Source: a virus
Taxonomy: Duplodnaviria; Heunggongvirae; Uroviricota; Caudoviricetes
IMG/VR virus record: IMGVR_UViG_2698536484_000026
Length of the DNA: 64,000 bases
Direction: 5' to 3' (one strand)
Positions 6,457 through 21,801 of the stretch are shown here, piece by piece. The notes beneath the pieces were generated by a model. That model searched no databases. It was not told the DNA's origin and saw nothing but the letters and a program-made list of their open reading frames with translations. Positions within the stretch are counted from its first letter, which is position 1; each line of letters opens with the position of its first letter. The position numbers and the translations under genes were made by a program.

Positions 6457-6687
6457 ATGCCATACCCGACCAATGTTGTTGCGCTCGTAGAGAGCGATTT
6501 TCTGGCTAAGGCTCGTGAAATGATGAAAGATCGCGAGCAGGCTTTCAACTTGTACGAATGGGCAATTAAGTGCTTGCATCTTGGGGAGCATCGCGAACTT
6601 GTTGAACAGCTTTTAGGTGAGTTGATCAACGAGGTGTTTGCCTTGAATGTTCAACTACATGGTCGAGAAAATAATCAATCGAAATGA
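6457..6687 (+). CDS. Hypothetical small protein
   Basis: ORF with RBS-like AAGGAAAA upstream. Confidence 0.35.
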   Translation: MPYPTNVVALVESDFLAKAREMMKDREQAFNLYEWAIKCLHLGEHRELVEQLLGELINEVFALNVQLHGRENNQSK

Positions 6688-7271
6688 TAGATAAGTACAA
6701 ACTATTCATAAGATGAATTGTAAGTGCTAAGATCTGATAGTTTCCAGTCGTAGACTGGAGACTCGACCTGATGGGTGGGGGTAAGCGTCACTGGCGTCAG
6801 GTTTAAAAAAGTTCACTACCAGCGTAGAACCGGTGCCGTTTAGGTGTCGGGGAAGGGGGAACCAAAGTGAGCGGAGACAAGGGTCACTTTATGATTGTCG
6901 AGTCTGGGGTGTTTCGAGAGGTTGAATCCAGTACTCCCCTTCATAAAGTGTGGGAAGATCTCGGTTCTGGGGTGCTGTCATCCATAACTTCCCAAGTCTA
7001 AGCTGGCAGTAGACTTAGACCATAACTTTTCAGGTTATGAAACGACCAGGTTGGTGAGGGATTTTTATACTCACCTCCCTGGGAGAGTATTACCTGAAAA
7101 GACAACCTCTCACTTCGTTCGAGGTGAACTTCACTCACTTCGTTCGTTCAGTTCAGGTTTATAAAAACCTGTTCTGGGAAGTAATTTGTTTATTTTAATA
7201 ATTATTAACACGCACGCGTGTGCGCACGCGCGAGGAAAAAAATCGGCGCGGCGCTTGATTCAGGAGTTTAT

Positions 7272-7865
7272 ATGACGACGAAGACACCAGCCCGATCGCA
7301 AGCAAAAACTCGCAAAAAAGCCAAAAACAAAAATTCTCCCCGCACCAATCCCACAACGCCTGTCGTAGAGTTCAATCCCCAGCTTAAAACCGTGAAAATC
7401 TTCAGTGATGGCTCTTGCCTTAAAAATCCGGGTGGCCCGGGCGGTTACGGTATCGTTCTTCAGTATCGTGGAGAGGAACGCGAGTTCTCAGATGGTTTTC
7501 ATAGCACCACCAATAACCGCATGGAGATGATGGGGGCACTTATCGGGCTGGAGCGTTTGAAATATCCATGCAACGTTATTTTACACTCTGATAGCCAGTA
7601 TCTGAAAAACGGCATGACACAGTGGATGAAATGGTGGAAACGCAATGGATGGATGACTTCTGACAAAAAACCGGTAAAGAATGTTGATCTGTGGAAGCGT
7701 CTGGATGAGGCCGCAAGTCGACATAATGTTCGCTGGAAGTGGGTTAAAGGTCACGCCGGGCATCGTGAAAATGAAATATGTGATCGACTCGCGAAGATCG
7801 CAGCTTTTTCAGCAGCAGATATGCCTCACAAGAAAGATATTGGTTTTGTTTATAACAAGCGGTAA
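7272..7865 (+). CDS. rnhA: Ribonuclease H (RNase HI-like) with basic N-terminal extension
   Basis: [52 protein letters not shown] match RNase HI. Confidence 0.75.
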
Positions 7866-8010
7866 GTAAGTGTTTACCTATCATTTTAAATCATGTATCT
7901 TATCGGCGTCAGGATGACAATGTGTCGGTAAGACACAGTTCCAGGATGGAACGAGAAAGGCGGCTGGCAATCGCCAGCCGCAACTCTTTCTGACACTGGA
8001 TGGAGTCCAC

Positions 8011-8505
8011 ATGGCACGTCAAACCTATTTCACTTCTGCAACTAAACGTCCTCGTTCTTTACGTCAAATTTTGGCCGAATTATTTAGCGGTCGTGTTATG
8101 TCACGTCTTGATGAACTAGAGACTACCGTTCGGTTGCTGAATGAACGTTTAGATAATCAAGCGTCAGTTGTTGCGAACGTGGGGGCGATTGTTGCCTCTG
8201 GTTCTTCACGCGAAGCGAAAAGTACACGGCCTTTAGTGAAGGAGAAAAACAACAAGGACAGTTCGAATGGAAAATTTTCAAAGAAAGAGGCTGAAACCAA
8301 TGGCCTACGTTCTCATTATAGTTTCACTGGCGACGGTAGCCGTTCCAGCCGGCCAGAGCCTTTTGATGCCGGATTCATCCATCACCACACCTTCGTCGAC
8401 GACAATTACCACCACTCCAGTGGAGCGTCCTGTCACTCTGGATGGGATGGCGGTGGATGCGATACCTCAAGTTCATCCAGTTACTCAGGATCATGCTGTG
8501 ACTAA
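8011..8505 (+). CDS. Hypothetical protein (C-terminal part questionable; overlaps next ORF in another frame)
   Basis: Good RBS and coiled-coil-like N-terminus; C-terminal 60 aa looks like out-of-frame low-complexity translation. Confidence 0.25.
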   Translation: MARQTYFTSATKRPRSLRQILAELFSGRVMSRLDELETTVRLLNERLDNQASVVANVGAIVASGSSREAKSTRPLVKEKNNKDSSNGKFSKKEAETNGLRSHYSFTGDGSRSSRPEPFDAGFIHHHTFVDDNYHHSSGASCHSGWDGGGCDTSSSSSYSGSCCD

Positions 8506-8518
8506 GGCGGTTGTATGA
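8267..8518 (+). CDS. Small membrane/secreted protein
   Basis: Hydrophobic segment MAYVLIIVSLATVAVPA; stop overlaps next start (ATGA). Confidence 0.35.
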   Translation: MENFQRKRLKPMAYVLIIVSLATVAVPAGQSLLMPDSSITTPSSTTITTTPVERPVTLDGMAVDAIPQVHPVTQDHAVTKAVV

Positions 8519-8703
8519 ACTGGTTTTCAAATCACTTTGGAAAAATTTGGCTGGCAATTCTTGCCCTCATGGCCGCCGGTTGGGTATCGAACATTATAAA
8601 ACTTGTTTGCTCTGGCGATCTCCAGTTTCAGGCTGGCATGACCTTGGCTCGTGTAGTTGGGATTTTTGTTTTTCCAGTTGGTTCGGTACTTGGTTATTTC
8701 TGA
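8515..8703 (+). CDS. Small membrane protein (two hydrophobic segments)
   Basis: IWLAILALMAAGWV and VVGIFVFPVGSVLGYF hydrophobic stretches. Confidence 0.4.
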   Translation: MNWFSNHFGKIWLAILALMAAGWVSNIIKLVCSGDLQFQAGMTLARVVGIFVFPVGSVLGYF

Positions 8704-8796
8704 CGGCTGTTAGTGCATATGCATTGACCATCTCTGCGTAAGCAATTTATGTAATTAGAAAACAACTTGTTTTGACAAATAATAAAAGGAAAACAC

Positions 8797-9222
8797 ATGT
8801 TAGGTTTCTTCAAAAAGAAAACTCGTAAAGCTGTTATCGAAGTCAAAAAAATGGAGAACCGTGATGCGGTTGAGGCCACCGTGTGGGGCGCGTACATGAT
8901 CTCCTATGCCGACGGCACATGTGACGCAAAAGAAATTGCCATTCTTGAGAAGACAATTGCAGCTCTGCCTGCGTTTTCTCCGTTTGCTGGTGAAATTGCC
9001 CAAATGAGCGCCAATATCCGTGCTCGTTACGAAGCGTCCCCTCGTTCTGCTAATGCACAGGCTATTCGTGAGCTGTCTGATATTGCGGGTACTCCAGAGG
9101 CGGTCGATGTTCTGTGTCTGTGCCTTGATATTGCCGATCAGGACGGCATTGGTGAACAAGAAGAGCAGGCACTGAAAAAGATCGCCCAGGCGCTTCAGTT
9201 GTCACTGGATGCTTATCTCTAA
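8797..9222 (+). CDS. TerB-like domain protein (tentative)
   Basis: YADGTCDAKEIAILE...DIADQDGIGEQEEQALKKIA resembles TerB-fold pattern; preceded by AAAACAA-N-TTGTTT motif. Confidence 0.45.
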   Translation: MLGFFKKKTRKAVIEVKKMENRDAVEATVWGAYMISYADGTCDAKEIAILEKTIAALPAFSPFAGEIAQMSANIRARYEASPRSANAQAIRELSDIAGTPEAVDVLCLCLDIADQDGIGEQEEQALKKIAQALQLSLDAYL

Positions 9223-9381
9223 TGCTTGAGAGATTCCGGCTTGTGATCGTCATTGCTCTTCTGGTGATGGCGGTGTTGGTGGATTTTACGGGAAAGATGA
9301 TGTCTGTCATTTCTGATGGCGTCCTCATTGGTTTGGCGATCTACTTCGCTTATCCGTTAGTTCGTAAAGCAAAGTGCTAAT
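9223..9381 (+). CDS. Small hydrophobic protein (52 aa)
   Basis: Mostly hydrophobic; ATG abuts previous stop; followed by terminator hairpin at 9383-9403. Confidence 0.3.
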
Positions 9382-9519
9382 GACAAGGGCCAAATGGCCC
9401 TTGTGTTTCGTTGACCGAAATAGAGAGTTTGCACCTTTACGTTTAGCTTGCTCCCCTTTTATGCCACATCACAATAAAGCCAATAAGAAAACAACTTGTT
9501 TAAGCATTAGGAAAAACAC

Positions 9520-10086
9520 ATGTGCAAGAAATGCAAAGCGATAGCTGATGAACAAAACGCCTTATTCGAAGAAATGGATGCTAATGAACTGGTCAAAATG
9601 TTAGCCATTCTTCGAGGAATAGAAGACGTTTCCATATTTGAGAGAGTGGTTACAGCACTTAATTATGAGTCCGCCTTTGAAGAGCCAACTCAGATTGTAG
9701 CTTTAGCACATCATTTCGGTGTTCATTATCTTGCTGAAAAAGAGAGAGCTGATAAGTTGCAAGCGACTTTGGATATGGTGAGCGAGACTCAAGGATCTCA
9801 TGACGGTAATAAAAGTGAGACGATTATTGCCAGCAAAGATCGTGAAATTGCCGGGCTTAAATCCTCTCTAACGATGTTGATGTCTGCAATTAACCTTATG
9901 TCTTCTAAAGCAGGTTATAAAATGCCATCACTAAACAGCGACGATCCGATGGCCGTTCGCCAGCTTTTAGGTGCAATGGCCGACCAGCTCGACGACACAA
10001 AGAGTCGCCTTGAAGACATGATGCGGGAGCTCACGCATCGCCATGACTTGAATAAGCAGCCGCACAAAACGCAATACGCACTCTAA
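9520..10086 (+). CDS. Hypothetical protein
   Basis: ORF preceded by conserved AAGAAAACAACTTGTTT motif and RBS; terminator hairpin 10104-10119 after it. Confidence 0.45.
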   Translation: MCKKCKAIADEQNALFEEMDANELVKMLAILRGIEDVSIFERVVTALNYESAFEEPTQIVALAHHFGVHYLAEKERADKLQATLDMVSETQGSHDGNKSETIIASKDREIAGLKSSLTMLMSAINLMSSKAGYKMPSLNSDDPMAVRQLLGAMADQLDDTKSRLEDMMRELTHRHDLNKQPHKTQYAL

Positions 10087-10227
10087 TACTGCACCAGTCG
10101 ACAGGGGGCGAAAGCCCCCATTTTTACGCCTTAAATCTGCTGTAACGCCTATGAATGCAGCTTTTATGCCTTTTCAAGTTTGCGATAATTACACCAATCA
10201 GAAAACAAATTATTTAATGGTGTAATT

Positions 10228-11913
10228 ATGAATACAGCCCTTTCTATCATCGACGATGCCAGCTCAAACACGGCTATCGACTATCGTCAGGAAATGAATG
10301 TCATCCACGAAATCGTGGCCGAGTGCGAGAAAGAGATCGCCTTCATGTATCAGGTACACGACTTCGTTTATGGCGACGAACGCCACAACATGATTAATCG
10401 CCTGCTGAGACTAAACCATCGACCAGATGAAGATCGCTCGCGTTTAAATCGAGGTTGGTTGGATAAAGTCGATCTGGAATGGGTGAAACAGAATATTTGG
10501 GCCGAGTACTGGAGGAAGGTCACGGACATGACTAACGTTTTGCTGATCATGCCAGCTTCCCGTCGAGATGAGTGGCGCGAGCAGTTTATAGAGGGCAAAC
10601 AGGAAGTCATCAAAACTGACAGAACCGGCTACCAGATGAAGGTTAAAGAGTTCGTTGGTGTACCGGAGTTCAAAGCAGAAACGGTCATACCCACGATGCT
10701 TAATTTGCTGAATGACAGGCACAAATATCTCTCTGAGCGCGTGTATGGCTTGTTTAAGGCGCTGAGTCCTGCGCACAAGACAAATAAGACAAACGGTTTC
10801 AGCGAGCGTCTGATAATCGCTGACTGCATTTCTGATTTCTGGCGGGACAGCGTTAGCGTGAACTATCGCAAAGAGGACTACATCGACGATCTGCGTGTCT
10901 TGCTTCATTTCTTCGCGCACAAAGAATTTATTACCATCAACCGCACTGCTGAGGTGCTATCAGCTGCGTATAGGGCAAACGACTGCCAGACCGGTGACTG
11001 GATGAACGTCGATGGAAATCTGATGCGCGTGAAGATGTTCAAGAACGGCAACGTTCACTTTGAAATACATCCTGACGTGGCCTGGAAGTTGAATGAGGTG
11101 CTGGCTTACAGTATGCCTGCTGCAATCCCCGCGCCATGCCGAACTGCGCCAAAAACACGGGCACCAAAGCAGTTCGGTTTAATCCAGAAGACGATCTCCG
11201 TGCCGGTTCGCACTGCGCTTCGTGACGGGCGATTGAGCAAAGACAAAGGCGTATGGTACTTCTCTGATTCAGCTCTCCAGAAGTCGCAGGTGGAAGAGCT
11301 TGAGCGCACACTTAGCTTCATTGGCGGCGTGCAGGAGAAAAAGCACTGGCAGTTCCCGTATGAGATCGGCCATACGCTAAATACGATTGTGGCTACCGGA
11401 TTAATACCGGATACAAAATCACACCAGTTCTACCCTACCCCACGCTTGATTGCTGAGTACGTTGCCAGAGCCACTGAATTGAAGCCTGGTGAGAAGCTGC
11501 TGGAGCCTCAAGCCGGACGTGGGGAGCTTCTGGCCTATATTAACGCCGATCTGGAAGATGTTACCTGCATAGAAATCGCACCTCTCTTCGCTGATATCCT
11601 GCGTGGAAAAGGGTATACGAACACGATTTGCTGCGACTTCATAAAGTGGTCTGAGGACAACGCAGGTTATCAGTTCGACAAAATCGTTATGAACCCGCCG
11701 TACTCGCTTGGTCGTCATAGAGAGCACACGATGGCTGCGCTGGGGCATCTGAAAGTCGGCGGGCGTCTTGTAGCAGTATTGCCGGGCACTGCGCCAATAC
11801 TGGACTGGATGACGATGGATAATTACGTTTATGCCAGAGGGAAGTCGTTTACCAACGAGTTTGAAGATACCGGGATCACAGTCAGCGTATACGTTTTCAA
11901 ACGCGTTAAATGA
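10228..11913 (+). CDS. Putative N6-adenine methyltransferase fused to a large N-terminal domain of unknown function
   Basis: C-terminal FYPTP, EPQAGRGELL and NPPYS motifs; N-terminal 380 aa unassigned. Confidence 0.6.
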   Translation: MNTALSIIDDASSNTAIDYRQEMNVIHEIVAECEKEIAFMYQVHDFVYGDERHNMINRLLRLNHRPDEDRSRLNRGWLDKVDLEWVKQNIWAEYWRKVTDMTNVLLIMPASRRDEWREQFIEGKQEVIKTDRTGYQMKVKEFVGVPEFKAETVIPTMLNLLNDRHKYLSERVYGLFKALSPAHKTNKTNGFSERLIIADCISDFWRDSVSVNYRKEDYIDDLRVLLHFFAHKEFITINRTAEVLSAAYRANDCQTGDWMNVDGNLMRVKMFKNGNVHFEIHPDVAWKLNEVLAYSMPAAIPAPCRTAPKTRAPKQFGLIQKTISVPVRTALRDGRLSKDKGVWYFSDSALQKSQVEELERTLSFIGGVQEKKHWQFPYEIGHTLNTIVATGLIPDTKSHQFYPTPRLIAEYVARATELKPGEKLLEPQAGRGELLAYINADLEDVTCIEIAPLFADILRGKGYTNTICCDFIKWSEDNAGYQFDKIVMNPPYSLGRHREHTMAALGHLKVGGRLVAVLPGTAPILDWMTMDNYVYARGKSFTNEFEDTGITVSVYVFKRVK

Positions 11914-11974
11914 TAGGTAAATACTTACTTAATTTGTGTAAGAATGTAGTAACTAAACGAGAAGAGAAAAACAC

Positions 11975-12679
11975 ATGAGCAACCTCCAGTTAGAGCATTT
12001 TAACGTCACAGGCCGTTCTGATTTTTCTTTCAAGTTTACATTGAAAGGTTATGCAGAGGATGCGGTAGGCCAGATCATTATTGATAAAGGCATCGTTAAG
12101 TTTGAGGGGGATTTTGATGAATCCGCGAAAACATTCATAGACTTCGTTGCCAAACGTTGGAGCGAGCAATGGAAAGACCTGGAAAAGCGCGCTAATGAGT
12201 TTGATCGGTTCATGGATGCAATGGATACAGCAAAAGAGGCTCTTGCTGCCGGGACTCCGTTAGATCTGGAGTCACTTTTCAACGGCGAAGTGGCCTCTGC
12301 GATGTTCGCCACCATGTTCGCGGGTGAGTTCGTCCGCAGCGGTGCCAAAAACTACCTTGAGCTGGATTACAACGTCCCTGCAATTGGCGATTTCGTCGTT
12401 ACCATCCAACGCAAAGAAGGTAAGACGCCAGGTGAACGCGTCGCAGAGCTTGAGGCTGTTGTGGATCAGCGTAACGGAGAGTGTGACCGTTTGATCAACG
12501 AGCTTCATGCACTTCGGGAAGAAAGAATATGCGCGGGTAGCAATACACGTAATGCTGCGGATATCTACTTCCAGTTAGTTGAGGAATGCCAGATTCCACC
12601 AGGTGGCTCTCTTGTCGATTACGTCAGACATTTAATGGCGGAAGTTAACTCCAGCCATAAAGATGGTGAGGTGCGCTGA
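11975..12679 (+). CDS. Hypothetical protein
   Basis: ORF with RBS; stop overlaps next start. Confidence 0.45.
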   Translation: MSNLQLEHFNVTGRSDFSFKFTLKGYAEDAVGQIIIDKGIVKFEGDFDESAKTFIDFVAKRWSEQWKDLEKRANEFDRFMDAMDTAKEALAAGTPLDLESLFNGEVASAMFATMFAGEFVRSGAKNYLELDYNVPAIGDFVVTIQRKEGKTPGERVAELEAVVDQRNGECDRLINELHALREERICAGSNTRNAADIYFQLVEECQIPPGGSLVDYVRHLMAEVNSSHKDGEVR

Positions 12680-13059
12680 TGTTTGGCATTGACGCACAGC
12701 GTATAGCCGCTTTTGCAAAAAGCCCTCTTGATAATCCCTTGTCTCGTAGTGAGCAAATGGAGCTGGCAAGGCTTTTTCTTCATATTCAAAAACAGGCAGA
12801 CGTTTTCAATAACATGCCTGATCAACCTATTCTGGATGGTCACATCCAGATGGTCATTAACAGTCATGAGAAAGGCTGGGCTGCAATCGTCCCCTGCACA
12901 ATTACATACAAGTTGGCGAAAGAGGTTCAAGAGTTTCGAAAAGCCAGTGTCGAATCGGAGTCTACCAAAGCCGCAATAAACACTCTTATTCGCATGGGGT
13001 TCACATGGGACGGTGGAGCTTACTGGCAAGCACCTCAACCCATTTTATCCGGCAATTAG
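12679..13059 (+). CDS. Hypothetical protein
   Basis: Coupled to preceding ORF; terminator-like hairpin 13090-13110 follows. Confidence 0.4.
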   Translation: MFGIDAQRIAAFAKSPLDNPLSRSEQMELARLFLHIQKQADVFNNMPDQPILDGHIQMVINSHEKGWAAIVPCTITYKLAKEVQEFRKASVESESTKAAINTLIRMGFTWDGGAYWQAPQPILSGN

Positions 13060-13178
13060 GCGCTACAAATCCTTCTGCATGAATAAATAAAGGCCATAAC
13101 TTATGGCCTTAAATAAATTGTTTTCTGCCTTTTCTTATTTGTGAAAATAACCACAACTAGAAAACAACGGAGTTAAGA

Positions 13179-13820
13179 ATGTCTAGTATTTCCGAAGCAC
13201 ATATGTTCGCCGCTGGCGCTCATGGTGGCGTTGGTCAGAAAAGAAAATATACAGGTGAAGATTATATAAATCATCCGGTTGCTGTCCGAGAGATCGTTGC
13301 ATTGCATGACGGAACCGTGGAGATGCAGATCGCGGCGCTTCTGCATGATGTGGTCGAAGACACAAATGTAACCATAGAGATGGTTCGTGATCACTTCGGT
13401 GAGCGCGTAGCTGAAATGGTTCTGGCTCTGACCAACATTGCAAGGCCAGAAGACGGCAATCGAATACAGCGTTTCATCATCAATGTCCGGGAGCTGGAGC
13501 AAAATCTCAACATGCAGACGCGCATGATCAAGCTGGCTGACCTGCTGGACAATACCTCTTCTATCGTGAGTCGCGATCCTGAGTTTTCAGCTATCTACCT
13601 TGCAGAGAAAGAACTGATGCTGGACGTACTCTTTAACGGCAAAGAGATTGGTGCCAATGCTGATGTTGTCGAGTACATGGAGAGGGTAGGTATAGAACAC
13701 CCGTTGCTATTAAGCGCAATGGCGAAAGTGACAGAAGGTATTGCGCTTCTGAAACCGGTACACATCAAACGTTATGAAAAACACAAATCGCTGATCTGGA
13801 GCGCGTGGGAGGCTGCATGA
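13179..13820 (+). CDS. RelA/SpoT-type HD-domain hydrolase (putative (p)ppGpp hydrolase)
   Basis: AHGGVGQKRKYTGEDYINHPVAV...AALLHDVVEDT matches RelA/SpoT HD hydrolase domain. Confidence 0.65.
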   Translation: MSSISEAHMFAAGAHGGVGQKRKYTGEDYINHPVAVREIVALHDGTVEMQIAALLHDVVEDTNVTIEMVRDHFGERVAEMVLALTNIARPEDGNRIQRFIINVRELEQNLNMQTRMIKLADLLDNTSSIVSRDPEFSAIYLAEKELMLDVLFNGKEIGANADVVEYMERVGIEHPLLLSAMAKVTEGIALLKPVHIKRYEKHKSLIWSAWEAA

Positions 13821-14359
13821 AGGTCGAAAAAATAGATGTTCTTTCCTTTGTGCTGACGGATCTGGAACGCCTCGATCCGGTTCGAGTGATGATTGAAAAC
13901 TACGAACCTGGTAAGGGAAGAATCACCATCACCTGCTACGGAAAAGCGTGGACTGCGGCTTGGTTTGCTATGGGCGGTGATGATGTGCAGACGTTCATCA
14001 AGCGAGTTAGCAACGACTATCTAATCGACAATTTCGACCCTCAACTGCTAAGCACGGTCGACGATGACAACGATGCAAATCTGCTTTTCGTGAAGTCAGA
14101 AATCATAAAGTTACGAAGAGAGAGAGAAATCGATGCTGTACAGGCTCGCGAAATGTGGGTCGAGGCGGAAAACGCAGATGATGTCAAAGAAAGCTGCTGT
14201 TGTCTCGGCATCGGTAACAAACTGCTGAATCTATTTGGTGATGATCCGTGGTATGCCGACTGGCCAACGATACCAAACCCGAAATACCAGTATCTGGAAC
14301 GCATTGTGAACGCGGTACGTGAAGGGCTGAAAGAGTTAGACAAGTTAGAGGCATCGTAA
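13817..14359 (+). CDS. Hypothetical protein
   Basis: ATG overlaps previous stop; part of coupled gene string. Confidence 0.4.
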   Translation: MKVEKIDVLSFVLTDLERLDPVRVMIENYEPGKGRITITCYGKAWTAAWFAMGGDDVQTFIKRVSNDYLIDNFDPQLLSTVDDDNDANLLFVKSEIIKLRREREIDAVQAREMWVEAENADDVKESCCCLGIGNKLLNLFGDDPWYADWPTIPNPKYQYLERIVNAVREGLKELDKLEAS

Positions 14360-14814
14360 TGAGAGAGAAAATCAAGAACCCGGTCGTCGTATTGTATAAA
14401 CGGGAAACCAGCGATTCTTATGCGGTATCCATCACTGATGGAAGCCAGAACATGCACGATGGTCTGCTAATGGCCTCCGTATCTCCTGATGATTCGGACT
14501 ACCCTTTCGCCACTTTCGCTATGGTTGGTTACTACATGGCTGCCGAAATTGAGAAGTTGCGGGCGCAGAGAGACGCATTAGCGGCGGAGAATGCAGCCCT
14601 GAAAGAATCTGAGCGAGCATTCGATGCGATGTGTGCCGAGGAACACGGAGATAATTGGGTTAGCGAATTAACGGAGACTCCAGCAACCGATGCTTTTCTG
14701 GCTGAAGTACGTGCGCAGGGCGTGGAGATGTTTGCTGAGTGCGCATACACACTTGAACATCATGATCACGCAGTAGCTTTTGCCGCTGAGCTTCGTACAG
14801 GAGCTAAACAGTGA
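14359..14814 (+). CDS. Hypothetical protein
   Basis: Coupled ORF. Confidence 0.4.
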   Translation: MREKIKNPVVVLYKRETSDSYAVSITDGSQNMHDGLLMASVSPDDSDYPFATFAMVGYYMAAEIEKLRAQRDALAAENAALKESERAFDAMCAEEHGDNWVSELTETPATDAFLAEVRAQGVEMFAECAYTLEHHDHAVAFAAELRTGAKQ

Positions 14815-15377
14815 ATGAGATTTACTACCTGACGTTACGTGAACGTTATTCACCAAAACCAGCGCCTAAATGCTCTGTTTGTGGCGAGGAAATGTCAATA
14901 CAGCGCATATCTGGAGCACATGTTGTTTATGCCTGTTCCGGTGAGGGTGATGACGGATATTTTAAGATAGGGCGTACTTTTGCAGACGAACATTATGAAA
15001 AATCACGCGTAACAGTAGTTGATGATAGTGATCCCGATGTGATTGCACTGCTGGACGAACTGGATAAAAGACAGCAACACATCCGACGTCTTGAGCAGGA
15101 GAACGTAGAGATGGCCCTAACGCTTGAGAAACTGCGTGTTGAGCTGGAGACCGTTAAACAGCGGGAAAAGGATCTGTTTATGGAAAATGTTCGACTTAAG
15201 TCAGGTATAGCAGGTCTGATACACCTCGGTATTCGATATGCGGATGTCGAAGTCATGAAAATAGCTGGAGATGCCCAGCTTTCTACTCCCTGTACTGACA
15301 GCATCATAAACAGTATTGCATCAGGCGTTTTCACCAAAGAGGGTCAGCATGATGAGAACAGTAGAAGTTCGCGCTGA
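14811..15377 (+). CDS. Hypothetical protein with CxxC...C zinc-ribbon-like N-terminus
   Basis: CSVCGEEMS...YACSG; coupled ORF. Confidence 0.4.
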   Translation: MNEIYYLTLRERYSPKPAPKCSVCGEEMSIQRISGAHVVYACSGEGDDGYFKIGRTFADEHYEKSRVTVVDDSDPDVIALLDELDKRQQHIRRLEQENVEMALTLEKLRVELETVKQREKDLFMENVRLKSGIAGLIHLGIRYADVEVMKIAGDAQLSTPCTDSIINSIASGVFTKEGQHDENSRSSR

Positions 15378-15537
15378 AGATGTAACCCCAGGTGATGTGG
15401 TCATAACATCTAAAGGCAAACGATGTGCGGTTAAATCTTTCTGGATGAACGGTGAAAAAGTGACTCTGTTCGGTACGGATGGTTCCGAAACTGATTATGA
15501 CTACGACGAATTGCTTGTTGTTGAGAGAGCTACCTAA
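15349..15537 (+). CDS. Hypothetical small protein
   Basis: Short ORF overlapping neighbours in operon. Confidence 0.3.
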   Translation: MMRTVEVRAEDVTPGDVVITSKGKRCAVKSFWMNGEKVTLFGTDGSETDYDYDELLVVERAT

Positions 15538-16073
15538 TGACCACCTTTACCAAAGAACAGTTAATCTCCCATGCACGCGAAAGCGTTAGTTATCTGGAAG
15601 ACTTGAAAGGACGTGTTAGTAAAGAAGGAGCGGACTGCAAAGTTGTTCATGAGATGGTTGAACGAGATCTAAAACTGGCTCGAATTGCACTGACCTCACT
15701 GGAGGCAGAGCCAGTGGCGTGGCTGGTAACACTCACAAAAAACGATCAGGAATCAGTCTCTATTATTTACCGTGACTGTGCAGAGAAAGATACATGGGTT
15801 CGGATACATGAGTCACTCGGTTCTGTCGCACATGTTGCCCCGCTTTACATGGCGCAGCCAGAACCGTCGAAGGAGGAGAAAGGACGTTCAGTCATCCAGG
15901 GTAAAGCCGATAATTCACCATTGCCGCGCTACCAGGTTATCGAATTAACAATGCTGGTTAAACAATTGGTCAGCCAACTGAAAAAAGCAAAACCTGATTG
16001 CAAATTACCGGATAGGGCAATGGATTATCTTTTGCGGAACGGACTGCTAAGTGTGGAGGATGCCTTACGATGA
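15537..16073 (+). CDS. Hypothetical protein
   Basis: Coupled ORF. Confidence 0.4.
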   Translation: MTTFTKEQLISHARESVSYLEDLKGRVSKEGADCKVVHEMVERDLKLARIALTSLEAEPVAWLVTLTKNDQESVSIIYRDCAEKDTWVRIHESLGSVAHVAPLYMAQPEPSKEEKGRSVIQGKADNSPLPRYQVIELTMLVKQLVSQLKKAKPDCKLPDRAMDYLLRNGLLSVEDALR

Positions 16074-16657
16074 TTGAAATGACAAAAGAAGAACTAACAC
16101 AGGCAACAAAGGATTACGGAAAAAAGCACATCGCACATCGTATGGCGAATGTGTTACTGGCCTTGTCTGAACAAAAGCCATCTGCGTTTGTAATGAAAGA
16201 TGATTTGGCCGATCCGGCAATTGTTTCGACTCCGGCATATTTAGATATTGAGGATGCGGAACAAAAAACGATTGGGGATATTGTCGCGCTTTATGCCGAT
16301 CCCTTTCCTGTCATCGGCGACACTACTGCTCTTGTGGACGATATTTTAAACATTCTCGCGCTTCTTGAGGCTGGCGATTGGTCAGAACATTGCACTAAAA
16401 CGGAGTTAGGCGGTCGGCTTGAAAGAGAGATTACACAACTTATTGGTGATGCCCAAAATGATTTGTCACCTGAGCATCTCCCCTGCGATGTAGTCCTTGT
16501 GCCAGGGATGAGGATACACGAAGGCGTCAGAACGAAAACATTATTAACCGCATTACAGAGAAGAGCCGAACTAAGCTCGCGGATAAAGTTGATGCCATCC
16601 AAAATATTTGATGTCGTCAAATTTACGCCATCGCAACATACTGAGAGAGATAAATGA
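16070..16657 (+). CDS. Hypothetical protein
   Basis: Coupled ORF. Confidence 0.4.
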   Translation: MIEMTKEELTQATKDYGKKHIAHRMANVLLALSEQKPSAFVMKDDLADPAIVSTPAYLDIEDAEQKTIGDIVALYADPFPVIGDTTALVDDILNILALLEAGDWSEHCTKTELGGRLEREITQLIGDAQNDLSPEHLPCDVVLVPGMRIHEGVRTKTLLTALQRRAELSSRIKLMPSKIFDVVKFTPSQHTERDK

Positions 16658-17286
16658 GCACGGTAGCGAAAGATCTCACAGAAGATATTCTCAATGAAAT
16701 TATTGCTGGTGCAAATACCTCGCTTGAGCAACTTCTTGCGTTAGCACTGAGAGCCGAACGTCGAGACAGAAATCGTTTTTATGAACGATTACCAGGGAAA
16801 CGACCAGATAGATCAGATGAAGAAGGTTGCGATATAGACTACATGGAGCCTTCAGAGATTTATCAACTTGGTAAAGATGACGGCTGGAACGCTTATCACG
16901 ATGCTGTGATGAAGTTGGATGAAAAAGTTAAACCTCTTTCTCGACCGGTAGATCACGGTTTCCGCGATAACTGCGAATGCTCTAGTTGCCAGACCACGGC
17001 CCGTATTTGTTCCGAATTGACAGATAAGTCCAGCCTAATCTACGAAGTTAATGTAGGCGGTAATACATGGGTCGAATGCACAAGAGCTGCATACGTAAGA
17101 GCAAAAGACAAGGGTGAATTAACCAGAGTTGTTGCCCATCACCCAAATAATGAGCTTAAAGATCACCAGATTAGAGAACTGGTGAATGAGTTGCGGGATA
17201 TTGCGGTTCAGTACCACGGAACGCAGCAATTGCGGGAGAAAATTGCCAGAGCAGTGAACAACTCAATTAGATCAGAAAGTATGTAG
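16654..17286 (+). CDS. Hypothetical protein (Cys-containing)
   Basis: Last gene of left + strand operon; hairpin 17302-17321 downstream. Confidence 0.4.
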   Translation: MSTVAKDLTEDILNEIIAGANTSLEQLLALALRAERRDRNRFYERLPGKRPDRSDEEGCDIDYMEPSEIYQLGKDDGWNAYHDAVMKLDEKVKPLSRPVDHGFRDNCECSSCQTTARICSELTDKSSLIYEVNVGGNTWVECTRAAYVRAKDKGELTRVVAHHPNNELKDHQIRELVNELRDIAVQYHGTQQLREKIARAVNNSIRSESM

Positions 17287-17720
17287 TCAATACAATAAAA
17301 TGGCCCCATTTGGATGGGGCCGGTAACAACTAGCATTATGGGCGCTGGTTGACGTACTCAATGATCGCTTCGATGATTGCGAACATAGGCGGCACGATTT
17401 TGAAAAGTAAGTTAAGCACTATAGGCCTCACTTAGTTTTATCGCACCTAGCTGCAAATACCTTTGAGCTTGCCTTTGCAGTTGCAATATCTGTAGTCGCC
17501 AGATACTTACGGCACGATTTCGAGTTAAGGTAAGGTTTTAGAGTCACCAAAAACCTGGACTTAAATCTTCTTTGAGAACAACGATGTTTGGTAAATGGTC
17601 ATTATTACCTAGCATGACGGCTCAACGTTTCTTGATGAATCCAGTACATTCGGTTAATCTTAGCTCAGTCGCCAGATACTTATGGCTCAGGAACAGAGGC
17701 GCAAACTCTGTTTCCTTTTA

Positions 17721-17753
17721 AAAAGCCCAGCCTAGTCAACTGGGCTTTTTTAA
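17721..17753. terminator. Bidirectional rho-independent terminator
   Basis: agcccag...ctgggct stem flanked by A-run upstream and TTTTTTA downstream. Confidence 0.5.
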
Positions 17754-18046
17754 TGTCCGTTTTTAACCAAATGTACCCACAATACCGCAACATCAGTGTC
17801 TTGCGAATTAAGATAGGATTTATAGAGACTATGTGCAAGTGCATAACTTTGTGGATAACTCGTAAAGGAAAAAGTGGTTTCCGCGGACATTAGTTCAGAC
17901 AAGGAGTCTGGGAAAGTCAATGGGAAGTAAAAATTTGTTAAAAATAACGTTTGTTGGAATTGTATATATTTATGCCTTTCAATAGTTAGCATCTTATTAA
18001 CATCTTTTTTAAGAGATAGAGTTCAAAAATATATAGCTTCAACATA

Positions 18047-18066
18047 TACTGTATGCATATACAGCA
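18047..18066 (+). promoter_or_regulatory. LexA (SOS) box
   Basis: TACTGTATGCATATACAGCA fits CTGT-N8-ACAG, 17 bp upstream of UmuD'-like start. Confidence 0.6.
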
Positions 18067-18082
18067 TTAAGAGGCGAGTATT

Positions 18083-18472
18083 ATGGGCTTCCCTTCTCCT
18101 GCGGCGGATTATGCTGAGAGCCGTATTTCTCTTGATCAGCAGATAATTAGACATCCTTCAGCGACCTACTTCATGAGGGCGGCTGATAGTCATCATCGTG
18201 AGGGAATATTGCAGGGTGCATTGCTGGTGGTCGATTCCTCACTGACTCCTGTTGATGGATCTCTTCTTGTATGTGCTCTGGATGGGGAATATCGCGTAAA
18301 AAGATACCGGAAGTATCCACGTCAGCATCTGGAGGATTTAAGAACTGGTAAGAAGGAAGCATTGCCAAAGGATGATGATGGATGCACGGGCAGCAATGCC
18401 GTGTTTGGTGTGATCACTCACATTATCAACGACGCAAGAAGTGGCGAGTTTGATGATTGTCCTGTGATGTAG
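18083..18472 (+). CDS. umuD: UmuD'-like S24 peptidase-fold protein, N-terminally truncated (P1 HumD-like); no umuC partner
   Basis: GFPSPAADY...HPSATYF...DS...VK aligns to UmuD from about residue 25 onward; in-frame stop 15 nt upstream fixes the start. Confidence 0.7.
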   Translation: MGFPSPAADYAESRISLDQQIIRHPSATYFMRAADSHHREGILQGALLVVDSSLTPVDGSLLVCALDGEYRVKRYRKYPRQHLEDLRTGKKEALPKDDDGCTGSNAVFGVITHIINDARSGEFDDCPVM

Positions 18473-18483
18473 GAGAACTGTTT

Positions 18484-18510
18484 AGGTGGTGCATTGCACC
18501 ACCTTTTTAT
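18484..18510 (+). terminator. Rho-independent terminator
   Basis: Perfect 9-bp stem aggtggtgc/gcaccacct followed by TTTTAT. Confidence 0.55.
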
Positions 18511-19610
18511 CACACTGCGCGGAATGCGATTTCGCCAGGTATTACTTCACCTTGCCAATACATTTGGGCAGCAACGCGATCTGCGAGGTCACGATAAATA
18601 GCCGTAAATTCGCTATCTGGACGACTAATAACGGTTGGTGTTCCGTTATCCAGATCTTCACGAAGAGAGATATGAAGTGGCATTTGGCCTAACAACTGCG
18701 TGTTGTATTTCTCGGCCAGTTTCTGTGCGCCACCGGTGCCAAAAATTGGCTCGTGATGACCGCAGTTACTGCAAATATGCACACTCATGTTTTCGACGAT
18801 ACCTAGTACCGGCACTTCGACTTTTTCGAACATCACAATGCCTTTCTTCGCATCGATCAGCGCGATGTCTTGCGGCGTAGTTACCACAACCGCACCAGTT
18901 ACAGGAATGTTCTGCGCCAGCGTCAATTGAATATCACCAGTGCCCGGCGGCATATCGAGAACGAGATAGTCCAGATCAGGCCACAGTGTTTCCTGCAACA
19001 TCTGCATCAACGCCTTGCTGGCCATCGGTCCACGCCACACCATTGCATTGTCGTCGGTGACCAGATAACCAATAGAGTTGGTTGCCAGGCCATGAGACAT
19101 GATAGGTGCCATGTGAGTACCGTCCGGTGAGGTTGGACGTTGGTTTTCCGCGCCCAGCATGGTTGGAATTGATGGACCATAGATATCGGCATCCAAAATA
19201 CCAACTTTCGCACCTTCAGCAGCCAAAGCCAGTGCCAAGTTTACTGCTGTGGACGATTTGCCTACACCGCCCTTGCCTGAGCTTACGGCGATAATATTCT
19301 TAACACCATTAATGCCTGGTTGGTTTTTGACGCGCTTAAGCGTGGCAATGTTGTACGACAGCTTCCAGTCAATAGCCTTTGCGCCAGTGATACGGAGCAG
19401 ATCACCACTACATTGCTCTTTCAGGTCTTCAAAAGGCTTATTCCACACGAAAGGCATGATTAGTTCGACATGCAGTGTGTCATCCATCAACGCAACATGG
19501 TGTAACGCTTTAAGCGTAGTCAGGTTGTGTTTCAGGGTTGGGTGCTGAAAATTAGCCAGCGTACCGGCTACCATTGCTCTCAGGGCATCCGGCGATTTGG
19601 ACTCGCTCAT
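18510..19610 (-). CDS. apbC: Iron-sulfur cluster carrier ATPase ApbC/Mrp
   Basis: Near full-length match to enterobacterial Mrp: AVSSGKGGVGKSSTAVNLALALA, MPPGTGD, C-terminal CSNCGH. Confidence 0.9.
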   Translation of the reverse strand: MSESKSPDALRAMVAGTLANFQHPTLKHNLTTLKALHHVALMDDTLHVELIMPFVWNKPFEDLKEQCSGDLLRITGAKAIDWKLSYNIATLKRVKNQPGINGVKNIIAVSSGKGGVGKSSTAVNLALALAAEGAKVGILDADIYGPSIPTMLGAENQRPTSPDGTHMAPIMSHGLATNSIGYLVTDDNAMVWRGPMASKALMQMLQETLWPDLDYLVLDMPPGTGDIQLTLAQNIPVTGAVVVTTPQDIALIDAKKGIVMFEKVEVPVLGIVENMSVHICSNCGHHEPIFGTGGAQKLAEKYNTQLLGQMPLHISLREDLDNGTPTVISRPDSEFTAIYRDLADRVAAQMYWQGEVIPGEIAFRAV

Positions 19611-19767
19611 CCCGTCTCCTTTATTTTAATTTGCGCAATTGTCGCCTTGTAGTGTACTCCAGCTGCGACATTTAATCATTTATGAGAAATGCTGTTATCA
19701 CATGGCAGACATAAGGCCATTTTGTTACTATCAAGCCCCTTTTCACTACAAAGAAGTAATGCCTACT

Positions 19768-21801
19768 ATGACCCAAGTCGCGAAGAAAATTCTGGTGACG
19801 TGCGCGCTGCCGTACGCTAACGGCTCAATCCACCTCGGCCATATGCTGGAGCACATCCAGGCTGATGTCTGGGTTCGTTACCAGCGAATGCGCGGCCACG
19901 AGGTTAATTTCATCTGTGCCGACGATGCCCACGGTACGCCGATCATGCTGAAAGCACAGCAACTTGGTATCACACCGGAGCAGATGATTGGCGAAATGAG
20001 TCAGGAACACCAGACTGATTTCGCAGGCTTTAACATCAGCTATGACAACTATCACTCGACGCACAGCGAAGAGAACCGTCAGTTGTCTGAGCTTATCTAT
20101 ACTCGCCTGAAAGAGAACGGTTTTATTAAAAATCGCACTATCTCTCAGTTGTACGACCCGGAAAAAGGCATGTTCCTGCCGGATCGTTTTGTGAAAGGCA
20201 CCTGCCCGAAATGTAAAGCGCCAGATCAATACGGCGATAACTGTGAAGTTTGCGGCGCGACCTACAGCCCGACTGAACTGATCGAGCCGAAATCGGTGGT
20301 TTCTGGTGCTACCCCGGTAATGCGTGATTCTGAACACTTCTTCTTTGATCTGCCCTCTTTCAGCGAAATGTTGCAGGCATGGACCCGCAGCGGTGCGTTG
20401 CAGGAGCAGGTGGCAAACAAAATGCAGGAGTGGTTTGAATCTGGTCTGCAACAGTGGGATATCTCCCGCGACGCACCTTACTTCGGTTTTGAAATTCCGA
20501 ACGCGCCGGGTAAATATTTCTACGTCTGGCTGGACGCACCGATTGGCTACATGGGTTCCTTCAAGAATCTGTGCGACAAGCGCGGCGACACTACCAGCTT
20601 CGATGAATACTGGAAGAAAGACTCCACCGCCGAGCTGTACCACTTCATCGGTAAAGATATCGTTTACTTCCACAGCCTGTTCTGGCCTGCCATGCTGGAA
20701 GGCAGCAACTTCCGCAAGCCGACCAACCTGTTTGTTCACGGCTATGTGACGGTGAACGGCGCGAAGATGTCCAAGTCTCGCGGCACCTTTATTAAAGCCA
20801 GCACCTGGTTGAATCATTTTGACGCTGACAGCCTGCGTTACTACTACACTGCGAAACTCTCTTCGCGCATTGATGATATCGATCTCAACCTGGAGGATTT
20901 CGTTCAGCGTGTGAATGCCGATATCGTGAACAAAGTGGTTAACCTGGCGTCCCGTAACGCTGGCTTTATCAATAAGCGTTTTGACGGTGTGCTGGCAAGC
21001 GAGCTGGCTGACCCGCAGTTGTACAAAACCTTCACTGATGCCGCTGAAGTGATTGGTGAAGCGTGGGAAAGCCGCGAATTTGGTAAAGCTATCCGTGAAA
21101 TCATGGCACTGGCTGACCTGGCTAACCGCTATGTCGACGAGCAGGCTCCTTGGGTAGTCGCAAAACAGGAAGGTCGCGATGCTGACCTGCAGGCGATTTG
21201 CTCAATGGGCATCAACCTGTTCCGCGTGCTGATGACTTACCTGAAACCGGTACTGCCGAAACTGACAGAACGTGCGGAAGCATTCCTGAATACGGAACTG
21301 ACCTGGGATGGCATCCAGCAACCGCTGCTGGGCCATAAAGTGAATCCGTTCAAAGCACTGTATAACCGTATCGACATGAAACAGGTGGAAGCACTGGTGG
21401 AAGCGTCTAAAGAAGAAGTGAAAGCTACTGCCGCGCCAGTTACTGGCCCGCTGGCAGACGACCCGATTCAGGAAACCATCACCTTTGACGACTTTGCCAA
21501 AGTTGACCTGCGCGTGGCACTGATCGAAAACGCAGAGTTTGTTGAAGGTTCTGACAAACTGCTGCGCCTGACGCTGGATCTCGGCGGTGAAAAACGCAAT
21601 GTCTTCTCAGGCATCCGTTCTGCTTATCCAGACCCACAGGCACTGATTGGTCGTCACACCATTATGGTGGCTAACCTGGCTCCGCGTAAGATGCGCTTCG
21701 GCATCTCCGAAGGTATGGTGATGGCTGCTGGCCCCGGCGGGAAAGATATCTTCCTGTTAAGCCCGGATGCTGGTGCTAAACCTGGCCACCAGGTTAAGTA
21801 A
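19768..21801 (+). CDS. metG: Methionine--tRNA ligase
   Basis: [26 protein letters not shown] (HIGH), KMSKS, CPKC...C zinc knuckles, C-terminal tRNA-binding domain; 677 aa from ATG 19768. Confidence 0.95.

Follow-up and report, generated by a model that had tools for sequence, protein, structure and literature searches.

Salmonella phage SSU5 encodes a small alarmone hydrolase (SAH) that Jimmy et al. (2020) place in the PaSpo subfamily (PMC7229694). In E. coli this protein neutralises all five validated toxic small alarmone synthetases (toxSAS), namely CapRel, PhRel2, FaRel2, PhRel and FaRel (PMC7229694, Table 1), and the same authors propose that incoming phages could bypass alarmone-based defence with such hydrolases (PMC7229694). 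PaSpo(SSU5) has been co-expressed as an antidote for the production of CapRel(SJ46) (PMC9712102) and likewise of PhRel2 and FaRel2 (10.1101/2021.04.30.441581; PMC11559606). Here we analyze a 64,000-nucleotide stretch of a virus of the class Caudoviricetes (IMG/VR record IMGVR_UViG_2698536484_000026), referred to in its full length as the window, and an ortholog of PaSpo(SSU5) that it carries, referred to as the window SAH. We consider it highly probable that this gene encodes a stand-alone SAH of the PaSpo type, a predicted remover of 3'-pyrophosphates, and that it is an optional phage-plasmid gene that would cancel toxSAS-induced growth arrest, the chemistry and the role being carried over from characterized relatives.

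Other described SAHs frame the comparison. ATfaRel of Cellulomonas marina and the SAH of Salmonella phage PVP-SE1 (PbcSpo) are, like the window protein, single-domain hydrolases from the RelA/SpoT homolog (RSH) superfamily, and each neutralises every toxSAS tested (PMC7229694); ATfaRel also removes the 3'-pyrophosphate from tRNA in vitro (10.1101/2021.04.30.441581). Both belong to an SAH subfamily other than that of the window gene, and ATfaRel resides in a three-gene operon with its own toxin whereas the window SAH has no toxin partner. Metazoan MESH1 (HDDC3; 3nr1, 5vxa), which also rescues cells from toxSAS toxins (PMC7229694), has an identical set of catalytic residues and the same fold as the predicted structure of the window SAH (Foldseek E about 5e-6, target-normalised TM-score 0.74), but the two proteins share about 28% identity and MESH1 has 179 residues, the phage-plasmid clade having an extra segment and a C-terminal helix. 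The P. aeruginosa SAH (6yvc), C. glutamicum RelH (7qoc/7qod) and the Leptospira SAH (7qoe) are likewise orphan hydrolases without a synthetase domain and share the HD fold with the window SAH model (target-normalised TM-scores 0.58-0.78). They share 20-25% identity with it and, rather than being mobile-element cargo, serve as housekeeping or adaptation enzymes encoded on chromosomes. Aph1 of a Bacteroides prophage (7smg) is, like the window SAH, a phage-borne single-domain HD hydrolase, and protects from a toxic synthetase (PMC10083569), but it has 149 residues, adjoins its own toxin gene, is inactive on (p)ppGpp and shows weaker sequence similarity. The window SAH falls outside the Aph1 family, being closer to the (p)ppGpp hydrolases and having no adjacent Apk-type toxin gene, and outside the ATfaRel-type toxSAS antitoxins, as no conserved toxic synthetase gene adjoins it.

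The window gene encodes a predicted PaSpo-type hydrolase

The gene is an intact open reading frame (Table 1) whose GGAG ribosome-binding site is kept in SSU5 and in the remnant on pF404-2; short opposite-strand open reading frames are without support. The original prediction, of a phage-encoded RelA/SpoT-type HD hydrolase with a strong motif match to (p)ppGpp hydrolase domains and with a hidden Markov model search among the proposed checks, is borne out by sequence, motifs and predicted fold. HD_4 (PF13328), an HD-domain model that takes in RelA/SpoT hydrolase domains, matched the protein at E = 1.1e-16, scoring 61.4 bits where the gathering cut-off is 27.2. Matches were also obtained with the general HD model (PF01966) at E = 1.5e-5 and with phrog_990, 'metal-dependent phosphohydrolase', at E = 7.3e-54. 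TIGR00691 (spoT_relA) matched at E = 4.1e-24, only over model positions 1-123 of 687, which form its hydrolase end, and the matches to long RSH models ended at about model position 123-152. HD_4 and HD were the only domains matched, synthetase, TGS and ACT domains being absent, and the single-domain protein is therefore an SAH. The domain match is far above chance and the gene is real.

Sequence matches in the PDB at 1e-12 to 1e-9 comprised SpoT, Lmo0812, human and fly MESH1, and Rel, and the list also included bacterial SAHs and the (p)ppApp hydrolase Aph1. Aph1 reached E = 5.3e-7, whereas SpoT, MESH1 and Rel scored about 1e-12, and the P. aeruginosa SAH structure showed weak sequence similarity to the window SAH (E = 7.4e-4).

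A HMMER alignment to human MESH1 placed the candidate catalytic residues of the window SAH opposite those of the metazoan enzyme (Table 1) and paired Y29 with MESH1 Y32. The MESH1 residue numbers, which we take to be those of the MESH1 structure paper (Sun et al. 2010), are consistent with the D66K mutant entry 9chy. The His/Asp metal ligands, on which the original prediction had staked itself, are all kept, the tetrad of H32, H56, D57 and D121 being complete; the catalytic pair E60-D61 and the substrate-binding residues R22-K23, Y29 and N125 are all present. In an alignment of 84 homologs, R22, Y29, H32, P33, H56, E60, D61, D121 and N125 were invariant, and K23 and D57 were at least 90% conserved. 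Judged by these residues, the active site of the window SAH is intact. An AlphaFold2 model built on the same alignment was entirely helical, with a mean pLDDT of 97 and a pTM of 0.93. A Foldseek search of the PDB with this model returned 37 matches at E <= 0.001, all of them RSH hydrolase domains, among them MESH1, the P. aeruginosa SAH, C. glutamicum RelH, the Leptospira SAH, Rel, SpoT and Aph1. Compared with the shorter SAHs, the phage-plasmid clade has extra parts at about residues 158-175 and in a C-terminal helix at residues 193-212.

The sole match to the window SAH in the SSU5 genome was SSU5_099 (YP_006906731.1), which is 87% identical over a gapless alignment of two 213-residue proteins. 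Homology to SSU5 spans window positions 13080-14333 and thereby takes in the hairpin-bearing leader, the SAH gene and the gene after it. Because of this full-length identity and the cassette in common, we assign the window SAH by orthology to the PaSpo subfamily of the RSH superfamily. All catalytic residues are identical between the two proteins, and both genes are carried by SSU5-like phage-plasmids with the same leader and the same downstream gene. They differ by 27 substitutions, 18 of which fall in the C-terminal third (residues 141-213), in their upstream flanking genes, and in host lineage, which is Salmonella for SSU5 and Escherichia for the window. The identification is correct but already known: the gene family, its occurrence in phages and the activity of the 87%-identical ortholog have been in print since 2020, and RefSeq labels the same open reading frame on the near-identical plasmid NZ_CP057658.1 'HD domain-containing protein'.

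Table 1. Positions of the SAH gene, its predicted active-site residues and associated features (window coordinates unless a locus is named; MESH1 numbering refers to 3nr1).
Feature	Position	Strand	Remarks
DUF4942 protein, 561 aa	10228-11913	+	C-terminal part matches PADLOC mad2 and type II/orphan methyltransferase models
Conserved leader	13080..13178	+	left edge of the cassette in common with SSU5; SSU5 homology begins at 13080
GGAG ribosome-binding site	13169..13172	+	read from the sequence; 6 nt 5' of the SAH ATG
SAH coding sequence	13179..13820	+	213 aa; single RelA/SpoT-type HD domain; ATG-to-TGA open reading frame
R22-K23 codons	13242..13247	+	substrate phosphate-binding motif; aligns with MESH1 R24-K25
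H32-P33 codons	13272..13277	+	H32 is the first metal ligand; aligns with MESH1 H35-P36
H56-D57 to E60-D61	13344..13361	+	HD metal ligands and catalytic acid/base pair; MESH1 H61-D62 and E65-D66
D121 to N125	13539..13553	+	D121 is the fourth metal ligand; MESH1 D122 and N126
Downstream gene, 180 aa	13817..14359	+	cysteine-containing; phrog_3451; start overlaps the SAH stop codon (ATGA)
SAH remnants	H206-H210; L014 2501-2539		first 39-44 nt of the gene left

An optional gene of SSU5-like phage-plasmids

The window is part of an SSU5-like phage-plasmid of roughly 110 kb. The 1.8 kb around the SAH gene are 99.9% identical to pRHB19-C05_2 of Escherichia fergusonii, a non-mobilizable plasmid of 110,777 bp; window positions 6599-20400 match it at 99.89% identity and the remaining window at 97-99%. 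The annotation of pRHB19-C05_2 includes terminase, portal, major capsid, tape-measure and tail proteins as well as ParB-like proteins, a DnaB-like helicase, a primase, DNA polymerase III alpha, NrdAB, thymidylate synthase and MetG. The window itself holds SSU5-like phage-plasmid terminase, portal, capsid, tail and partition genes, in agreement with the prediction that the hydrolase is phage-encoded. No base-composition sign of horizontal transfer was seen, the G+C fraction being 0.483 for the SAH gene and 0.465 for the window.

The backbone gene upstream of the SAH (12679-13059) was found in 167 complete E. coli genomes and was always plasmid-borne. Full-length SAH accompanied it in 36 of the 167 (22%), again only on plasmids. 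Several other SSU5-like E. coli phage-plasmid records resemble phage Cyrano, in which the SAH and the downstream gene are both absent, and keep the flanks. Five E. coli plasmids retain only the very start of the gene (Table 1), beyond which lies either an IS5 transposase or an unrelated DUF551 gene; in these lineages the SAH has been lost or replaced. Protein databases further revealed a decayed allele truncated to 139 residues on 139 contigs, two chimeric alleles whose metal-binding half has given way to an AAA-ATPase or Ead-like N-terminus, and one allele in which HD has become HG. Purifying selection acts on the intact copies: comparison of the window SAH with that of SSU5 gave a dN/dS of 0.18 over the full length, with 0.085 in residues 1-140 and 0.35 in residues 141-213. 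Full-length homologs occur on non-mobilizable plasmids of about 100-120 kb in Escherichia, Salmonella, Enterobacter, Citrobacter and Klebsiella, and also in more than 240 phage records. The SAH is an optional accessory gene of SSU5-like phage-plasmids.

Within the accessory region the SAH gene sits in a long run of small plus-strand ea-type genes (Ead/Ea22, Eaa-like, Eae-like), just downstream of the DUF4942 DNA methyltransferase gene, which is a conserved neighbor of the SAH in SSU5-like elements. The DUF4942 protein, whose PADLOC matches are given in Table 1, is probably an orphan DNA methyltransferase acting as an anti-restriction factor. On another SSU5-like contig, of 110.6 kb, a Tad2-like gene of the anti-Thoeris family (PF11195; locus L010, 2563-2877) is located some 2 kb upstream of an SAH homolog of 41% identity. 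The position of this Tad2-like gene suggests that the SAH region gathers counter-defence genes.

A putative counter-measure against toxSAS toxins

Kurata et al. report that the tRNA 3'-CCA end is pyrophosphorylated by FaRel2, PhRel, PhRel2 and CapRel, and the SAHs MESH1 and ATfaRel restore aminoacylation of the pyrophosphorylated tRNA in vitro (10.1101/2021.04.30.441581). The original prediction had offered two roles for the window protein, manipulation of the host stringent response and the degradation of nucleotide second messengers used by defence systems. Stringent-response and anti-defence roles had both already been discussed for the 87%-identical SSU5 protein (PMC7229694). The documented link to defence, though, is not the degradation of cyclic second messengers. 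It is the undoing of toxSAS action, that is, of (pp)pApp synthesis or tRNA 3'-CCA pyrophosphorylation.

On the basis of the chemistry of its relatives, the window SAH would act as follows. H32, H56, D57 and D121 would hold a divalent metal, which is Mn2+ in characterized members of the family; E60-D61 would activate a water molecule, and R22-K23, Y29 and N125 would position the substrate. The enzyme would then strip the 3'-pyrophosphate from the ribose, with (p)ppGpp, (pp)pApp and the pyrophosphorylated tRNA 3'-CCA end as likely substrates. An SSU5-like phage-plasmid equipped with it could cancel growth arrest by toxSAS, for instance by CapRel-type defences of Enterobacteriaceae, and a lower host (p)ppGpp level would be a side effect or an alternative benefit. 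We tentatively favor a counter-measure against toxSAS toxins as the most likely role, because toxSAS neutralisation is the only known phenotype of the ortholog and CapRel systems are present in the same host genera (E. coli, Salmonella, Enterobacter and Klebsiella; PMC9712102), and because the neighborhood is of an accessory kind (the methyltransferase here, the Tad2-like gene in a related element) and the distribution is patchy.

Several observations weigh against this assignment. The literature on PaSpo(SSU5) yielded co-expression rescue only, with neither substrate kinetics nor a phage-infection phenotype found, and the literature searched contained no published demonstration of a phage SAH overcoming a defence system in a real infection. 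The SAH is absent from 78% of the E. coli genomes that carry the backbone gene and is often decayed, and its function is thus dispensable. A promoter scan did not find a plus-strand sigma-70 consensus promoter upstream of the gene. Strains carrying both the SAH and CapRel(SJ46) numbered 0 against 0.09 expected (36 and 14 of 5426 genomes, respectively), counts too small for the comparison to have power.

The best-surviving alternative is that manipulation of the stringent response is the primary function: the enzyme would degrade host (p)ppGpp and so benefit lytic growth by holding ribosome synthesis, replication and nucleotide pools at a high level, or it would tune host physiology during the plasmid stage. 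The motifs of the window SAH are those of (p)ppGpp hydrolases, with SpoT, Rel and MESH1 among its best matches in sequence and fold; strictly lytic phages and jumbo phages widely carry homologs, and a metabolic role has often been proposed there (PMC12846349); and thymidylate synthase, dihydrofolate reductase and NrdAB are encoded in neighboring parts of the element. We nevertheless regard it as a possible but doubtful primary role. A measurement of (p)ppGpp hydrolysis for this SAH clade was not found in the literature searched, toxSAS neutralisation is the one experimental phenotype of the ortholog (PMC7229694), and a 22% distribution suits a conditional counter-measure more than a core aid to replication. 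Degradation of (p)ppGpp and the countering of toxSAS toxins are not mutually exclusive.

Another alternative, which we judge improbable, is that the SAH shields the lysogen against (p)ppApp-synthetase toxins injected into it, for example Tas1-like type VI effectors or phage toxins fused to MuF, or that its substrate is some other metabolite with a 3'- or 2'-phosphate, in the way that MESH1 acts on NADPH. Rescue from FaRel, a maker of (pp)pApp, by the ortholog (PMC7229694) would fit such an activity, as would the promiscuity of Mesh1-type enzymes (PMC9765508), and the MESH1 entries 5vxa and 9chy are among the PDB matches. Against this, SpoT, Rel and MESH1 all resemble the window SAH more closely than the (p)ppApp-specific Aph1 does, and the genomic context shows no pointer to interbacterial competition. 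A type IV antitoxin or immunity protein for a toxic alarmone synthetase of the same element, after the manner of ATfaRel/FaRel or Aph1/Apk2, is very improbable, for although SAHs have such a role elsewhere (PMC7229694, PMC10083569) and the ATGA overlap with the downstream gene resembles an operon, no RelA_SpoT synthetase domain was found in the neighbors, no RelA/SpoT synthetase (toxSAS) gene is annotated on the whole near-identical 110.8-kb plasmid, the downstream gene occurs without the SAH in other phages, and distant SAH homologs have different neighbors.

The SAH is a stand-alone gene

Comparison with Pfam, NCBIfam and PADLOC likewise gave no toxin-like match for the neighbors of the SAH. 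Since the plasmid has no annotated synthetase, no neighbor is toxin-like and the neighbors of the homologs differ, the SAH is a gene on its own, which does not serve as antitoxin to an operon partner; the candidate pairing of the SAH with a local toxSAS was rejected on the same neighbor and plasmid annotations. An obligate two-gene system of the SAH and the downstream 180-residue protein was likewise rejected. The downstream gene is present without the SAH in the lambdoid coliphage EC.W1-9, and the distant SAH homologs on Klebsiella-type SSU5-like elements have other, unrelated neighbors and lie upstream, not downstream, of the DUF4942 methyltransferase gene.

The downstream gene is co-inherited with the SAH as the cassette in common with SSU5, where its counterpart, SSU5_100, is 85% identical at the amino acid level. 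Its product matched phrog_3451 at E = 1.2e-86 and bears the newer RefSeq name 'phiTE_072 family protein'; no match to Pfam, NCBIfam or PADLOC was found. The phrog_3451 profile (287 positions) also matched the N-terminal 90 residues of a 234-residue protein encoded at 11975-12679, separately from its match to the whole 180-residue protein. As one profile matches two separate window proteins, its pieces must be fused in some phages, which points to domain shuffling among ea-type genes.

The leader upstream of the SAH is roughly 100 nucleotides long and contains a T-rich tract as well as a hairpin, located at 13090-13110 (AAGGCCATAAGTTATGGCCTT in the minus-strand scan). A four-way alignment showed it to be conserved in the window, SSU5, Cyrano and pF404-2 despite different flanking genes, and it may be a recombination joint or a regulatory region. 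A CRP-like site in the leader (TGTGAAAATAACCACA, 13140-13155) was discarded as unsupported, the window containing 2 matches against about 3 expected by chance.

Further features were noted outside the cassette. A TerB/TciA-like and DUF3927/TciB-like gene pair at 8797-9380 (plus strand), resembling that of phages P1 and SJ46, is conserved in every SSU5-like locus examined, where it lies upstream of the SAH region. An RNase H-like open reading frame of 215 residues (7218-7865, plus strand) lies within a 1.3-kb stretch to which the PLSDB table of the near-identical plasmid assigns no gene; at the corresponding place, phage Cyrano has an annotated 'Ribonuclease H' gene. Host-like genes for an apbC/minD-type ATPase and methionyl-tRNA synthetase (metG) occupy window positions 18510-21800, and ARAGORN found no tRNA gene in the 64-kb window.

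Discussion

The distribution of CapRel(SJ46), encoded by Salmonella phage SJ46 (locus L016, 6389-7510), bears on a reading of the SAH in terms of conflict between mobile elements. Of 5426 complete E. coli genomes, 14 carried its gene, in every case on plasmids of 93-161 kb, sizes that fit carriage on P1-like phage-plasmids. It is conceivable, though we would call it speculative, that the SAH is a weapon between such elements: SSU5-type phage-plasmids would use it to enter, or to coexist in, cells guarded by CapRel, and the insertion and C-terminal helix of the clade would adapt the enzyme to pyrophosphorylated tRNA, which would be its true substrate. In a related possibility, the SAH could lower (p)ppGpp in lysogens and thereby alter the stress tolerance of clinical Enterobacteriaceae.

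The result adds an Escherichia ortholog to a phage enzyme already in use as a laboratory antidote to toxSAS, and its practical value is limited. With its patchy presence (22%), its repeated decay and, where it is intact, its strong purifying selection, the gene turns this plasmid family into a convenient natural experiment. Such an experiment could show when a phage hydrolase pays, whether in countering CapRel-like defences or in controlling the host stringent response.

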